A stretch of DNA of 64,000 bases. Origin: Cystobasidiomycetes sp. EMM_F5. Taxonomy: Eukaryota. The translations under genes were made by a program, and so were the position numbers. Location of the stretch: NCBI GenBank assembly GCA_051047955.1, contig JBPGPT010000017.1, forward strand, positions 62,001 through 126,000, in the 5' to 3' direction. The notes beneath the pieces were generated by a model. The model saw only the letters and a program-made list of their open reading frames with translations. It searched no databases and was not told where the DNA came from. Of this stretch, positions 53,478-61,724 are shown in pieces. Position 1 is the stretch's first letter; every line of letters begins with the position of its first letter.

Positions 53478-54157
53478 ATGTCTGCTGAATACGATTCTAC
53501 TGATGCTGGAGAAACCATTGCGACCGAGGTGGGGCTTTTGCCATGCTGCCGCCCAGCCTACTCGTAATAGATCTAACTCGGCGAATCTTACAGGACGGCG
53601 GTGCATTAGGCTCTCCAGAGTACGCCTCGGACCAGGTCACAAGTAGCGAGGCATGTCCCCTGTCACCTTCTGTACCCTCTTCCATGCCTAACACTTCGCC
53701 TTGTTACCCGTTCACGCGCGCTCAGGCCCCATCTTCGAGCAACTACGATGTCACGAGCTCGGGTGTGAATGATCAGGTGGGTAATCATACACAACAGTAC
53801 GGGTTTCATGCATTCGAACAGATTACTGCAACAGGGCAATTCGTATGAGACACGGGACTATCCCGATATCGCTGGCAGTAATGACGCTTATCATTACGAG
53901 TGAGTGATTTACGGTAAGAGACCTGTGTAGAGTGTACTGAGAATCCCCTACACCTGCTACAGCAATAAGGATGGATCGTCATACGATGCATACCACGATG
54001 GCTCAAACAGTATGCCATTATGCTTCGCCAATCTCGGCTTAAATCTGCTACTGATACGTTCGCTATGCACGCAGACTTTACTACCACTTCCGGAAGCGAA
54101 CGCTACACTTCGGCTGATGGACAGGCGACTTGGTCATCTGGGCAGCAAACACAATGA
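53478..54157 (+). CDS. cassette gene A1: small uncharacterised 'YHY-DN' protein, 5 exons
   Basis: Exons 53478-53528, 53594-53776, 53835-53899, 53963-54009, 54075-54157, all GT-AG and in frame: ..YDVTSSGVNDQ|GNSYETRDYPDIAGSNDAYHYD|NKDGSSYDAYHDGSNN|FTTTSGSERYTSADGQATW.. Confidence 0.78.
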
Positions 54158-54307
54158 CGCATAATCATCCATGATATAGTGACGCTTCGAGTTCTATGAG
54201 GCTCTTTCATGCGTATCACAAACGCCTTTTGCTTGGTATGATTCGACAAGTCATAAAGGAAAACTGCAATCGTGTCAAACTCCTGTCATCCCTGTCGAAG
54301 CCCTCCT

Positions 54308-54994
54308 TTAAAGAGAATCTTGTCTCAAAAGCATTGCCGGCATGAAAGCATCGTTGAGTAGTATGGGCAACTGATTGCCACGGTCTCTATCATTTGACAG
54401 CAGCGGGCTGTCGGAGCGAGCTCGACGAACGTGATAATCGACGGAGAAGTGCGCAGGCTGCCGATAACCTCCATTTGCACTTTGTGATCTGCTAATTGTG
54501 TGAGGGACTTGTAAGTTGGTAGCGCGTTCTCTACCGTTCGATGTTTGGTGCGACGTTGACTTCACGATTGGTGATCTGCTGGGAGTTGGTACCTTTCCAG
54601 ATGGCTTACGCTCGACACTTCGTTTAGGCGCCGTAGACGGAACGACAGACTTACGAGAGGACTGCTGATATGCTACTTGTTTCGTGATTTTGTTGACCAC
54701 GACGCCGTTTTTCTTTTGCTTGAGCCTGAGTGCCAGTGCGTCACACAAGCTCTTTGCGCACATGTCTGTACAGAATATCCAATCATTCGGTAGGATCACA
54801 CCCGCGCTCAACGTGGTTGAAGTCTTGAAGAGATAGTCTTTTGCTGTCCTGGGGCACGACATGCATCGTACTGCCGGACCTCTGGGCCAATTGGCTGATT
54901 TGTTCTCGCACAGCTCTGCATCTATTGCTGCTTGAATAATGTTGCAAAGTGGATGCGAGTGAGTAGCTGTGGGGGCTGAAAGCTGCGAGGCCAT
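54308..54994 (-). CDS. cassette gene B1: intronless basic protein with putative C4 (TRASH/FCS-like) zinc finger
   Basis: RCMSC-x17-LPNDWIFCTDMCA; K/R/S-rich tail; paralog at 57181-57810. Confidence 0.75.
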   Translation of the reverse strand: MASQLSAPTATHSHPLCNIIQAAIDAELCENKSANWPRGPAVRCMSCPRTAKDYLFKTSTTLSAGVILPNDWIFCTDMCAKSLCDALALRLKQKKNGVVVNKITKQVAYQQSSRKSVVPSTAPKRSVERKPSGKVPTPSRSPIVKSTSHQTSNGRERATNLQVPHTISRSQSANGGYRQPAHFSVDYHVRRARSDSPLLSNDRDRGNQLPILLNDAFMPAMLLRQDSL

Positions 54995-55999
54995 CGTATG
55001 CAGCAGAGGAGCTCAATCTCGTGAGCGGGGAGATAGTGATGGAGCGGGAAGAGCAGATCTAGAGACAGATGAATGCAGGCAGATCAGGTAAAGTTAGCGA
55101 TGATGCGACTCCGGCAGTGGCGGGGAGCGAAGCCGTAAGAGTTGAGAGGAAGAGGAGTGAGGAGCCGCCTGCTGCCATAAGGCGGACGCTGTTGCACAGC
55201 GCGCATCGCCGTGGCTGTTTTTGTTCTTGCCACAATACTACCGCCCAAGGTACCCTAGACATACTGTCAGTGATGCCAGCGCCTATCGGTCTGCAGCAGA
55301 AGTGCGCTCAGGATAGAGGGGAGCTGAATGGAGACGACTTCATGAAGTTTTGAACGTATATGTACGCATCGGTCAGCTGCGCAGATTGTACTCACCTGAC
55401 CCGAGTCTGCTGTGTAAAGACGTAAGCCTTCGACGGTAACTCTATTCGAAGTCACTCGGATTATGCGCGGGGAGCAGAGCATTTTGCTCTCGAGAAGTAG
55501 GTCATGGAGGGAGATGGTTGGGCGAAAGCAACTTCAAGTTCTGACGACAACCGAAACATTTTGTGATAGCGCGCCGCTGTAGGTTCGAATGACTGATTTA
55601 ACTCGTTGTACTCAGCCTCCCTGAGTCTCTCGACCGCTGCTGCAACCACACAGACGTCTTTATCTTCGCCGTTGCAGGGTTACGGACGTCCTCACGTGGA
55701 CGTGAAGGACATATGATTGCCCTAGCTGTCTCATGGCTCTTGCCGGTCGACTCATGGTGGTACAGCCTGTAGATTACTGTAGAATGCAACCTGCAGCTAT
55801 CGTAGCAGATAGGGTGGCTCCCGGACGTGCTTTTGTTGAAAATTTGCGGGGCTCCGAACCAGATCACGTGTTGGCAATTAGAGCTCCCATTTTCAGTCGC
55901 ATCCGGGCTTTTGACGATAGCGACTTGGGCTCCTCTGCCCAAAGCCACCCTTTAGCTCACCTCCAATGCACACCTGACGACTCTTTGCTTGACTGCAGC

Positions 56000-56855
56000 A
56001 TGCCGCCAGTAACGCGCTCTCAATCACGGGCTTACAGCGTGAAAACGGAGGAGACGGAGATTGTCGTAAAGCTTGAGGAGATCAAACTCGAACCTACTGA
56101 TGTAGTCGTAACTACGTCCCCACCTGTACATTCTATCATTCCGAATCTTACAACATTATACTGACATTGACGTATTCTCTCCTCTCCTCTGCATTCAATC
56201 TCATCTTACACGCACAGGAATCACCCACGACGGCGCAAGTCGGCCCCGCTATATCTAACCTGAAGGCTATCCTCGAGTGTGCAGATCAGTCTCAGGTACG
56301 GCTTTCACTGACTGCATAAAGAGTTGATGTGCCAACCGTCTCTGTGGCTCGCAGTTTTATCGGACTGAGGTCGTTGAGGAGCCCCCTCCGGTATATTGCG
56401 ACTACCGTGTGCTTGGTAGCTATACGAATCGCCACGTAGGTCGCCTTACCGGCAAAATTTCGATGAACCTGATGAAACGCTCACCAATTTCACAGGGGAA
56501 TCTCGCCGAGAATCGATTTTATCCCACTATTCGCGGAAGTCGCTCATCGTATCATTACGAGTGCGTCTTACTTACTGTCGGCTGATAGCTTCGATCTCAG
56601 CTTAGGGCATTCACAGCAATTTGGACAAGTCACAGTACGACGCCTATCCCGATGGCGTTGATAGTGAGCTGCCGCAGTTGCCCTATGTCGGAATGAAGGT
56701 TCAGGCTAACTTATGACCATCCCGCAGTCTACACGGACCCTCGAGGAGGCTTTCACGTGCGAAAGATGACTGCAGATGGGCGGACACCCTGGATGGACGT
56801 GTGCTCACCACCTCGAATACCGGGTCGCAATCCTGAAGGCACGAGCTGGCAGTAA
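56000..56855 (+). CDS. cassette gene A2: paralog of A1, 6 exons
   Basis: Exons 56000-56125, 56218-56295, 56355-56435, 56496-56560, 56617-56663, 56728-56855: ..DYRVLGSYTNRH|GNLAENRFYPTIRGSRSSYHYD|NLDKSQYDAYPDGVDI|YTDPRGGFHVRKMTADGRTPW.. Confidence 0.78.
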
Positions 56856-57180
56856 TCAGGTCGAGTGATAGTAGCCTTGACAGGACTTGCCTGACACGAT
56901 CACACATTGATTATACAACGCTCTGTTGTGCGTATCACAACGGCTCTTTGTATACTCTCAATCGACTTGGCGCTAAATGACCACTGCACTCGTGTGACCT
57001 TGTGCTGAGCAAAATGTGTTTGGATTTTATTCCCAATATCGCGCCAAGCAAGCCGGCGCCTTGCCAACGTGACGTGAATCATGAAAGAGTTGATTTCTGC
57101 TTTCAACGTCGTCAACGGGAAAAGTGGCCTTTCCAAATCTAATTGACTTATCTGGTCTACTGCTATGAGGTGCTCACGCT

Positions 57181-57810
57181 TCACCAATAGAGACTCGTAT
57201 CTGCGGGAAGGAATTGTGGGAGCACGGCATCGTATCCGAAAGGCTTCAGGAATGATTGTGTAGATTGACGAGGCTCCTGCTGGCCACTCAAAGGCTTGGT
57301 ATAGGTATAGCGCACACTCGAAGGCTTGCGGACTTTTGACTGACCAATTGTGCGATGCAATTGAGCGTTTGTCAACCGCTGTTGCACTAATTCAGCGGAT
57401 TTAGGGATCTTCATGGCAGATTGTATTACAGAAATGTTCTGTAGAGGCTTGTGCGCAGCTTGTGCGCTACCTCTCATTCTCGCTGCCTCTTTTCTCTCCC
57501 TCTCCTGGCGGAACAGCCTTTGATGGGCCCTTATTTTGCACAGGAGGTAGCCAGCCCGCTGCACGGCGCATTTTTTTGTACAGAATACCCATCCTTGAGG
57601 AAGAACGTAAGGTTTTACCCATCCACCGCTAGCGTAGAACTGCTGGTCCTGGGTGCAGTTGGTACAGCTCGAGCAGCGCATCTCCTCGGCACCTTTGGCT
57701 AGCGTTGTCATTGCCTGAAGGTTGAGGGCGCATTTTGTAGCGACATAGAAGATATTCTGCTGCACCACGGGATTGTTGCGATACGCGCCTTCAATATCGA
57801 GCCACGTCAT
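57181..57810 (-). CDS. cassette gene B2: paralog of B1
   Basis: RCSSC..LPQGWVFCTKKCA; intronless; basic tail. Confidence 0.75.
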   Translation of the reverse strand: MTWLDIEGAYRNNPVVQQNIFYVATKCALNLQAMTTLAKGAEEMRCSSCTNCTQDQQFYASGGWVKPYVLPQGWVFCTKKCAVQRAGYLLCKIRAHQRLFRQERERKEAARMRGSAQAAHKPLQNISVIQSAMKIPKSAELVQQRLTNAQLHRTIGQSKVRKPSSVRYTYTKPLSGQQEPRQSTQSFLKPFGYDAVLPQFLPADTSLYW

Positions 57811-58515: not shown

Positions 58516-61500
58516 ATGCTTTCATGTTCTGCAAGATACGACGGCGGGCACAACATCGACACTCACCGCGCAGTCTCGCGGTCCACAAGTGAAGTTTCGC
58601 CTGCCAGCGCGGTGCGGTCATCATCCAGTTTCAGCCATATCAGAAGGAGCGACAGCGCCAGGCCTGTGAAATCATTACAAACTACGCCAGAACGACAGCA
58701 GAGGCATGCATACGGTCTGCCACTGTCGACACCTCCATCTGCCGCCGTATTGGCACCTGAAATGCCAGACCCAGCAGTTCAAACCGACAGTCCGTTAGGC
58801 AAATCGCAGGAGCGTGCAAGCAGCTCCCAGGACTATCCAGACAGTCACTCGAGCCATCCGGTACTGTCTCCGTCGGGCTCATCGTCGTCGTCCGCTTCGT
58901 TGCGCTCGTCGGGCAGCAGCAGCCATAGCTCGGAGCACGACAGTGCCGCGACTTCGCTGTCCGCCGTTGGAAGCACTGCTAGCATAACTGCTGCTCCTGG
59001 CGAAGGTGCGACGTCTGTGACGCAATGCGATAGCGCGATGCGGCCAGCGGTCAGCGCTTCCGCCGATCCAGCTTTCAAAGACCCGCCCAGACCAGCAGGC
59101 AGCAGTGCTGGTGTTGCCAGTAACGGTCAATCCACGAGCCCCGAATGGCTGCAGCGTATCAAGAGCTACAGTGCGATTTCGGACAGTACTCATCCGCAAC
59201 GGCAAGCGCAACTGTCAGACTGGGTCACAGGAAGCTCGAAGTCCTCAGCGCCCACAAGAGATGCATTCCAAAGCAGTAAATCAGTATCCCTGCTTACTGT
59301 ATCAAACGACCTTCAAGAATCTGAATCTGAATCTGCCTCACGGAAGAGCGCTCGAAGAGCAAGCTCTGGGTCTGGTGGAATGACGACTCCTTCAGATGAG
59401 CACTTTCGCTATACATTCACCCCTGTTGCATCAACGTCGAGGATGCGGTCAGAGTCGAGCAAAGACGCAACCTCGCCTACAATCGAAGGTCAAGCTGCTC
59501 GCCGGGCTTTTGATCGAAAGTATTCTGCAGAGCAGACGCGACCAGCACGACGCAAAATGCACCGTGTGGATGAAGCGGAGGACCGCCCATCGTCAGACGT
59601 AGCCCACAAAGTCAAGCATGCGATTGCGACTCGTAGCCCTCTTGTGGCTGACCAGCCACATTTGAGCGCGCGCGATTCGACTGCAGCTGCTGTACAGCAA
59701 AAGTTGCCCGATGGCATACTGGGTCAATCACCTCAAGATGCCAAACGCGAGACCATCTCGTCCACGTCGGGCAGTAGTGCTACCAGCGAAACCTTTCGAG
59801 ATCCGGGTGTGACAACAGCTGTACACGAGAAGCCCGCAACCATGAACATTGCCAGTTTTCCAACTCTCCAGCTTTTGCACTTGCTTGCCGAACTTCTCAC
59901 GAGCATCACACAAAAGAACGATGCCTCGCGGTTAGCGGCTGAAAAGGCGACAAGTGACGACCATGCAGATGGTCGAGGCGACGAAGCCGGCTCGAGCGGA
60001 CAGGAGAATAGTCCAGACCCTCAACAGTCTTCGTGGGCACAGAGACGGACGGACCCCGTCACTCCGGCTGTACCATTGTCAACTCCGACCGATGGCGAAC
60101 CGGGTAACGACGACTATCCTTTTCCACGATCAGCCATGTCGTACATGCAAAGTTCTCGTGCCAGTCATACCGACATGACGCGCACAGACGCTCTACGTGA
60201 TAACTTCTCGAGTCCAGCAGCCAGTCCGTCGAGCCGTCTGCGTAGATTGCGGCGGGATGACTTCCGCTGGCAGGAGACAGCCGCCCAGGATTCGCTCCAG
60301 AAGCGTACTATCCTTACATCTGCAGCGGCGGCCCTTGCTATGCCAAACGCCACGCTGTGCTTCCACGCACGCAACATTCCCAGTATCAGCATAGAGAGCT
60401 ACCTGATTCGCATCTCAAAATGTAAGCTTATGCAATGCTTCACGAGACCCGAAAGTGCTAAGCCGTTTCTTCAGATTGTCCGACTACAAATGAAGTATTT
60501 CTGTCTCTACTCGTATATTTCGACCGCATGTCACGGCTACCAGACATGTCACGGGCAGCAATCAGCTTCCTGCACTCTGGCGATTCGCAAGGGCCGAAGA
60601 GTAATGTCTTCGGCACGGACGCTAGCGGAGTCGTCACCAACTTCATGATTGACTCATTCAACGTTCATCGACTTTTAATTGCGGGAGTCACTGTAGCCTC
60701 CAAATTCTTCAGCGATGTCTTCTACACAAACTCCCGCTATGCCAAAGTAGGAGGCTTGCCCCTAGCCGAGCTCAATGCGCTGGAACTACAACTCCTTCTT
60801 TTAAACAATTTTGACTTGCTGGTGCAGGCCGATGATATACAGCGATATGGCGATTCTCTTCTCGAAGGTCGATTGCCACCCCACACGTATTCGCCACCTA
60901 GACTGTCTCGGGTTGACGCGTTGCTACCCGACATTAGCACGAAAGGATCTGCCGCTTCGGAAGTTCCTCTCTCCTTGAGAAGACGTGCAAGATCCGACCT
61001 GAGTAGCAAACTTCATGGGCGGGCACCCGAATTTCAAGTCGGCAGCGGGTCGACACAGCGGGACTTACATGACACTCCTAGTGATGCGGTCTCTGCTCGG
61101 CCGAAAACGTCCTTCAGATCTGCTAGCGAGTCGTCAACGTCTGCAAGCGAATCCAGTACTGTGGTGCCGTCGGAATCTAGTATTGATACCGAGAGAGCAG
61201 GCGATGTCGAGACAGACGAGGATGGAGAGATCGACGCCAAGGACCAGCATCTTCGCCACAACCACGCACTCGAACGAGACGACGATAGCGAGAGCAGCGA
61301 CGGCGACCACGAGATGGAGCGCATGAGCAATCTTCACCCCGGGACATCCCAATCTGCACCGTCTTTGGCGCCCAGCAGTACCATTAGGTTCGAAAACAGA
61401 AGTCATACGCCTACATCTGGTCCGCAGTTGACAGAGTCAATATCGGGCACATCCAACGCTCGAGATCCAGATGGAACACAGCAAGCGAGTACAAGCCGCA

Positions 61501-61724
61501 AAACCAATTCCGCCCGCGCCGCAGAGCTACAATCTTCCCACTCGCGCACTCGAGAGTGGATGTTGCACCAGCAGCAGTCTAACAGGACACTACGGACCGC
61601 AGGCACACTCGAACGTGATGAGGCAACCGATGAGGCGAGCGCCATTACCGAGACAACAGACAGCCAGAGAAGTCCATCCTCGAACGCTGTATCGGCGAGT
61701 GACGATGTCGACATGCAAGACTGA
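58516..61724 (+). CDS. Pho85-type cyclin (Pho80/Pcl6/Pcl7 family) with long disordered flanks
   Basis: CFHARNIPSISIESYLIRISK|YCPTTNEVFLSLLVYFDRM..IDSFNVHRLLIAGVTVASKFFSDVFYTNSRYAKVGGLPLAELNALE; intron 60422-60474; start uncertain. Confidence 0.88.

Follow-up and report, generated by a model that had tools for sequence, protein, structure and literature searches.

A 64,000-nucleotide (nt) stretch of the Cystobasidiomycetes sp. EMM_F5 genome (GenBank assembly GCA_051047955.1, contig JBPGPT010000017.1, positions 62,001 to 126,000 of the forward strand; hereafter, the window, whose own numbering is used throughout) carries four small genes in the order and orientation A1(+) B1(-) A2(+) B2(-), so that a convergent A/B unit is present twice. 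With moderate confidence, we attribute this cassette to an ancient segmental tandem duplication of two neighbouring genes together with the spacer between their 3' ends, after which all copies were kept under constraint and A2 evolved fast. A segment with a period of about 2.7 kb would have been copied in tandem, with three parts (A, a spacer block and B), and A and B would occur twice because they were already neighbours at that time. The four genes and the spacer block would thereafter have been maintained by purifying selection, with A1 staying near the consensus of its protein family and A2 evolving about 7 times faster. The original prediction from the DNA letters had proposed that an A+B unit was duplicated in tandem long ago, and this is upheld by three collinear islands of homology and by saturated synonymous sites. 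Passive co-duplication, given there as the fallback, accounts for the arrangement without extra assumptions.

Duplicated gene models and the conserved spacer block

The paralogy of A1 with A2 and of B1 with B2 was evaluated by Smith-Waterman alignment, and none of 2000 shuffles reached the score of either pair (A1-A2, 155 versus 33 +/- 6 for shuffles; B1-B2, 95 versus 32 +/- 5). The A-B cross pairs scored at chance, with 879 and 450 of 2000 shuffles reaching their scores. Three collinear islands of homology connect the two units at similar offsets, namely 2661 nt for the A core, 2719 nt for the spacer block and 2810 nt for the cysteine region of B, and are therefore the signature of a single segmental duplication. 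The strong divergence with four intact frames, noted earlier by eye, was also confirmed. All four frames are open, and the proportion of synonymous differences (pS) is at or near saturation in the A core (0.77), the B cysteine region (0.66) and the B local alignment (0.71). The corresponding proportions of nonsynonymous differences (pN) are 0.37, 0.48 and 0.56, each below pS; in view of this full or near saturation, the two are given separately and not combined into a dN/dS ratio. The closest-relative test of the paralogues covers A, and B has no outgroup.

Table 1 Coordinates of the duplicated genes and of the spacer block in the window.
Feature	Position	Strand	Description
A1 gene	53478..54157	+	5 exons, 4 introns, 142 amino acids
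A1 exons	53478-53528, 53594-53776, 53835-53899, 53963-54009, 54075-54157	+	model from sequence
Spacer block, copy 1	54201..54275	+	43 nt past A1 stop, 33 nt from B1 stop
B1 gene	54308..54994	-	intronless open reading frame, 228 amino acids, isoelectric point (pI) 10.0; cysteine region ~54755-54871
A2 gene	56000..56855	+	6 exons, 5 introns, 174 amino acids; family domain at residues ~83-154
A2 exons	56000-56125, 56218-56295, 56355-56435, 56496-56560, 56617-56663, 56728-56855	+	model
Spacer block, copy 2	56920..56995	+	64 nt past A2 stop, 186 nt from B2 stop
B2 gene	57181..57810	-	intronless open reading frame, 209 amino acids, pI 9.9; cysteine region ~57565-57681

The A1 model was built independently and is identical, letter for letter, to a 142-residue NCBI entry, 'hypothetical protein EMMF5_003914 [Cystobasidiomycetes sp. 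EMM_F5]' (P0003), which was retrieved with the open frame covering A1 exon 2. All nine A introns are 56-92 nt long with GT..AG ends and, as read from the sequence, a CTRAY-like branch site. The original prediction described three introns shared by A1 and A2 in position and phase, enclosing internal exons of identical length. The gene models agree with these positions, phases and exon coordinates, with the correction that the shared introns are the last three, A1 having four introns in all and A2 five. The three occupy the same alignment columns in phases 0, 2 and 1: the phase 0 intron precedes 'GN', the phase 2 intron falls inside the D of YHYD/N (the slash marks the intron), and the phase 1 intron follows 'DG..'. 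The exons between them are 65 and 47 nt long in both genes.

The 5' end of A2 is uncertain, as any of three donors (56102, 56108 and 56126) can link the ATG at 56000 in frame with the acceptor at 56217. The frame is also open for 89 codons upstream of this ATG, back to an ATG at 55733 (positions 55733-56125), and A2 could have a longer N-terminal extension than modelled. Neither the phmmer search nor the profile search of the databases returned A2, which therefore seems unannotated; it appears to be a real multi-intron gene absent from public annotation.

The spacer block is the best DNA-level match between the units, with 70% identity over 76 nt (blastn). Its local score of 38 was reached by none of 2000 dinucleotide shuffles (17.2 +/- 2.4, maximum 32) and by none of 2000 comparisons with random genomic windows (16.7 +/- 2.2, maximum 26). 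The block includes an invariant 12-mer, TGCGTATCACAA, at 54210-54221 in copy 1 and at 56929-56940 in copy 2, and these are its only two copies within the window. Taken alone the 12-mer is weak, with 8 of 100 shuffles yielding at least two matches when one mismatch is allowed, and it is absent from the metagenome contig L002, which carries an A-family gene (see below). Coding sequence was considered for the block and rejected, because the copies differ by 1-nt indels and copy 2 has stops in the common frames. Searches against Rfam gave no match at the gathering threshold over the whole window, and at E<=5 over 54100-57250 only a single chance-level row with no family match. Single-sequence folds of the block region had z-scores of +1.0, -1.3, +0.6 and -0.9, with no consistent stable fold. 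Just before the 12-mer (54196-54212 and 56914-56931), the two-sequence consensus allows a hairpin of 6 bp whose GCUCU loop is conserved and whose stem has three compensatory pair changes between the copies, and a comparison of just two sequences is too small a basis for it.

The block is probably under constraint, because neutral DNA at synonymous saturation should no longer align. Its distance from the A stop codon is near-constant and that from the B stop codon is variable (Table 1), and the simplest placement is therefore in the 3' untranslated region (UTR) of A. On positional grounds, the block most likely belongs to the A 3' UTR, or to the 3'-end-processing region where the convergent transcripts would meet. 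The convergent stops of unit 1 are only 150 nt apart, and normal 3' UTRs must therefore overlap there.

The A proteins and their fungal family

The A genes had been called orphan-like, which was wrong: by sequence similarity, A belongs, as a divergent member, to a large and unnamed pan-fungal family that comprises hundreds of proteins of ~80 residues. A phmmer search with A1 against 1.84 billion representatives gave 15 matches at E<=1e-3, comprising two of the window's own proteins, one low-complexity protein and 12 small fungal proteins (E 9e-7 to 9e-4) with 35-49% identity over A1 residues ~58-141. The top non-self match, P0004 (903 residues), was rejected as a relative of A, as this highly repetitive Ser/Ala/Pro-rich protein matches only the composition of the A1 N-terminus; it was excluded from the alignments. 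A search with a 12-sequence profile retained 538 of 1420 candidates at E<=1e-3. Names and lengths were read from 120 listed of these 538, and among those listed most are 71-105 residues long; their sources are many ascomycetes and basidiomycetes, with single entries labelled Acanthamoeba and Selaginella. The listed matches have uninformative names (hypothetical, uncharacterized, unnamed) or none, and the members looked up in 20 clusters likewise bear only uninformative names. None of the 12 A-family members tested matched a Pfam model above threshold. The nearest entries to A in the Atlas are three clusters of fungal hypothetical proteins of 74-84 residues (scores 0.86-0.88), which serve as a lead only.

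Eleven columns are invariant in the 12-sequence alignment, which includes A1 and not A2: Y68, G74, N76, G79, N80, Y97, Y99, N101, G104, S114 and G122 (A1 numbering). As read by eye from the alignments, A2 keeps eight of these residues and has lost G74, G104 and S114. Both A proteins score on the family hidden Markov model (HMM), which includes A1; A2 reached 45 bits (E 5e-14 within the local set), and its best match is A1, with a score of 152 versus 118 for the next protein. A tree of 183 domains pairs A1 with A2 as sisters (Shimodaira-Hasegawa-like approximate likelihood-ratio test, SH-aLRT, 81) and nests them, together with proteins of Trametes and Grifola, in a small basidiomycete subgroup (SH-aLRT 93) that has the variant motif YHYDN..GS.(Y/F)D.(Y/F)PDG. 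The end branch of A1 measures 0.23 and that of A2 1.74.

The small stand-alone size of ~70-100 residues does not hold for A1 (142 residues) or A2 (174 residues), because both have N-terminal extensions. In A1 an acidic, disordered N-terminal part of ~63 residues is followed by the family domain, a beta meander of ~73 residues (residues ~66-138); the protein has a pI of 4.05 and a net charge of -17.3, and the net charge of A2 is -5.2. The N-terminal parts of A1 and A2 could not be aligned (2446 of 3000 shuffles reached the score). AlphaFold2 with the family alignment predicted seven antiparallel strands in a meander over A1 residues ~65-138 and disorder over residues 1-63, with a predicted local distance difference test (pLDDT) above 90 over most of residues 65-138 and 56 residues at 90 or higher in the whole model. 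This predicted 7-strand meander has no hydrophobic core layer. A would belong to a family of cytosolic proteins whose single-layer beta meander is built from hairpin repeats of the form Y-x-Y-x-N-x-DGS, to which A1 and A2 would have added a lineage-specific acidic, disordered N-terminal extension.

The A family, with its repeat Y.Y.N.DGS.YY.NPDGS.YYN.G.G, could be entered as a new domain family. A protein from Grifola frondosa (P0015, 386 residues) has one full domain of the A subfamily at residues ~166-234 and, apparently upstream of it, a partial second A-like start ('WEDYYVVVLSGKNAEVYEY'), which suggests tandem A copies merged into a single gene model.

The B proteins and the setting of the locus

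B1 and B2, the latter identical to the database protein P0001, are basic (net charge of about +17 each) and rich in Ser, Thr and Pro. Their resemblance had been placed in a cysteine motif and in a C-terminal 'DA..P..L..SL' segment, and only the former held up. BLASTP aligned the two with 15 of 39 identities (E 4e-8), confined to the cysteine region, where they have in common C-x2-C-x27-C-x3-C with 'LP..W.FCT..CA'. The C-terminal segment was not significant, as the C-terminal halves scored 37 versus 30.8 +/- 5.6 and 450 of 3000 shuffles reached this value; the N-terminal parts were not alignable (2782 of 3000 shuffles). AlphaFold2 modelled B1 with low confidence (mean pLDDT 44.6, and 35-55 over the cysteine region) and with only two predicted helices (15-30 and 77-114), of which the latter is long, basic and located after the second cysteine pair. 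From the spacing of its cysteines and these predictions, we infer that B is basic and largely disordered, that it carries a single zinc-binding knuckle or ribbon of four cysteines followed by a basic helix, and that it is probably a nuclear factor binding nucleic acid or protein.

Homologues of B were sought in several ways. Neither B protein matched a Pfam zinc finger even at E<=10, the only row being PAP1 (E 0.29) for B1. The word-index search with B2 returned only B2 itself among 30 candidates, the Atlas gave no usable match for B1, and a metagenome scan with the B1+B2 alignment produced 216 pattern stretches, none of them confirmed. A sequence profile search of the PDB found 0 matches. Short cysteine motifs often slip through the filters of the Pfam and PDB searches, and all the searches for B are insensitive for a 39-residue motif; B is therefore not claimed as an orphan.

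The metagenome scan with a 4-sequence A alignment recovered two loci, L001 and L002, which are near-identical and thus represent one distinct locus. This single distant locus has a canonical A-family gene and no B-like neighbour within about 6 kb. The gene (L002:5926-6258) has one intron of 63 nt, also in phase 2, whose site is two codons further downstream than that of the phase-2 intron in A1 and A2 (YHYSN-S/DGS versus YHYD/N), an offset that may reflect intron sliding or independent gain. Prediction of an A-B complex returned scores of 0.00 in both runs, that is, 'no answer', which weighs neither way.

The window has a G+C content of 47-56% and short GT..AG introns, as in eukaryotic DNA. 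No further copies of A or B were found within its 64 kb by tblastn. The cassette is flanked by housekeeping genes (a Rad51-like gene, a PHO80-type cyclin, CLASP and SPT16), no flanking repeats or mobile elements were seen around it, and neither a signal peptide nor a transmembrane segment was detected, nor any known toxin domain. The PHO80-type cyclin domain (PF08613, E 1.4e-29) is in the frame 60462-61724, within 58516-61724 (+). Upstream of it is an open frame of ~700 codons, rich in Ser and Pro, with a weak match to the first part of the same domain, and 58516-61724 as a whole may represent a single gene whose N-terminus is long and disordered and which has an intron or a change of frame near 60460-60650. 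The main text of the genome announcement for this yeast describes gene prediction with funannotate and makes no mention of RNA data (PMC12697161). It also places EMM_F5 without a sister taxon among 27 genomes of the class, and close relatives are accordingly lacking (PMC12697161).

Alternative explanations and comparison with known systems

The four genes could instead form a functional module, in which the acidic beta-meander protein A binds or is regulated by the basic zinc protein B, or A and B are linked in cis by the overlap of their convergent 3' ends and by the spacer block, the pairs having co-diverged and the unit having been retained twice since its partners are interdependent. Retention of both members in both copies despite saturation would fit this, as would a non-coding block conserved between convergent stops, a unit 1 spacer so short that ordinary 3' UTRs would overlap, and the opposite net charges of A1 (-17) and of B1 and B2 (+17 each). 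The single-layer sheets of the CPAP G-box and MORN4, which are weak structural neighbours of A, also bind peptides in solved complexes. However, neighbours can be co-duplicated with no functional link, the L001/L002 locus has no B-like neighbour within about 6 kb, and most members of the A family are ~80-residue stand-alone proteins across fungi. The net charge of A2 is far smaller than that of A1, and the structural matches are generic (best Foldseek E 0.019; VIA Z 8.3-8.6, the common range of that tool). We therefore regard a module as possible but unlikely, and infer that the locus has no dedicated A-B mechanism. The specific proposals of the original prediction (regulator and target, toxin and antidote, meiotic drive or a recognition module) gained no supporting evidence from the analyses. 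Among these, a selfish toxin-antidote or drive-like cassette, or an allele-specific recognition locus, would have one gene as poison or label and the other as antidote or reader, diversified by conflict. The arrangement (paired, duplicated, strongly diverged) is all that speaks for it, and it is highly improbable in our judgement: the A family is conserved across Ascomycota and Basidiomycota and is therefore a poor fit to a selfish gene confined to one lineage, the cassette is set among housekeeping genes with no repeats or transposons, and the screens for signal peptides, transmembrane segments and known toxin domains came back empty. There is also no sign of excess replacement changes, because synonymous sites are saturated too.

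It is also conceivable that one unit, most likely A2/B2, is decaying or mis-modelled, with A2 a pseudogene or differently spliced and its intact frame partly an artefact of splice choice. A2 was missed by both database searches, unlike the other proteins of the window; its end branch is long, three of the 11 invariant family residues are lost, the donor of its first intron (GTACAT or GTAACT) is a weak one, and no homology backs its 5' exons. Against decay, the three homologous exons of A2 keep their length, phase and GT..AG sites, A2 still reaches 45 bits on the family HMM, and pN is below pS. An unconstrained frame of 174 codons would be open by chance with a probability of ~2e-4 ((61/64)^174) after synonymous saturation, and B2 retains a 209-codon open frame with its four cysteines. 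These observations make decay of a unit distinctly unlikely.

Several points weigh against the ancient duplication with constraint on all copies. The 5' exons of A2 come from our own model alone, its long branch could reflect relaxed constraint, and the splice sites, UTRs and transcript overlap at the cassette are predicted from sequence. The public gene models of EMM_F5 are ab initio, according to the genome announcement (PMC12697161). The sister grouping of A1 and A2 combines modest support with a long branch, and their placement is provisional because the alignment has 73 columns and the A2 branch is long. The spacer block, between convergent genes only 150 nt apart in unit 1, could just as well serve B or both genes, and the searches for B in other fungi were insensitive ones. 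Survival of both duplicates of both genes through saturation mildly favours coupling, since it would be less likely if the genes were lost independently.

Read as an ancient segmental duplication, the gene pair itself is ordinary genome evolution, a new instance of a common process. Its value is more in its parts. The A core exposes a large, foldable fungal family with at least several hundred members in Ascomycota and Basidiomycota, no Pfam model and no known function, and the ~76-nt block conserved through synonymous saturation is a clean candidate for a 3' regulatory element. If A and B are linked in other fungi, the locus becomes a useful entry point to the A family. A more speculative idea, to which we give little credence, is that A, the 3' block and B form an undescribed cis-coupled convergent module in which the block sets reciprocal expression, A and B bind each other, and the two units are co-diverged specificities. 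Were it true, it would be the first functional handle on hundreds of uncharacterised fungal small proteins.

The fungal poison-antidote drivers wtf and Spok are compact, duplicated and fast-diverging, and consist of single genes or of unrelated families located in variable regions. The A/B cassette is likewise compact, duplicated and fast-diverging, and differs from them in that A is pan-fungal, the flanks are housekeeping genes and flanking repeats are absent; it showed none of the features of drive that were examined. The four-cysteine fingers of the FCS, MYM and TRASH types have the pattern C-x2-C-x19-22-(F)C(S)-x2/3-C. B1 and B2 resemble them in the CxxC knuckle and in a second knuckle of aromatic-Cys-Ser/Thr-x2-Cys (W.FCT..C), and are unlike them in a 27-residue loop; the likeness is that of the motif, and B was filed in no family because no curated model matched.

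The nearest solved shapes to the A core are single-layer sheets, namely the CPAP/SAS-4 G-box (TCP10 domain), MORN repeats and the central sheet of OspA. Foldseek gave 4lzf_A (E 0.019) and 6jle_A (E 0.18), and VIA gave 4bxp_A (Z 8.3, root-mean-square deviation 3.0 over 67 residues); with an identity of only 9-17%, this is a resemblance of shape only. The A-family profile also matches the repeated 'DG.lYa.NPDGt..w' hairpin of PQQ-like propellers (the designer proteins 'Cake' and 'Scone', and 3hxj), with a summed E down to 1.8e-16 to which each repeat contributes ~7 bits and none passes alone. This is a short motif match, and the 3-4 hairpins of A are predicted to form an open meander, not a closed propeller.

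The closest comparison is with the unnamed family of ~80-residue fungal proteins itself, exemplified by Rhodotorula toruloides RHTO_02000, Penicillium rubens Pc16g06240, Fusarium oxysporum FOXG_00891 and Trametes cingulata KAI0359743.1. A literature search with six A-family locus tags found none in main texts, such tags usually being placed in supplementary tables. Compared with these proteins, A1 and A2 add 63-82 disordered N-terminal residues that are mutually unalignable, and A2 is highly derived. The cores of both nevertheless match the family pattern Y.(V/I)T.SG.N.QGN.Y..RDY......YHY.N.DGS...(Y/D)..(P)DGS.

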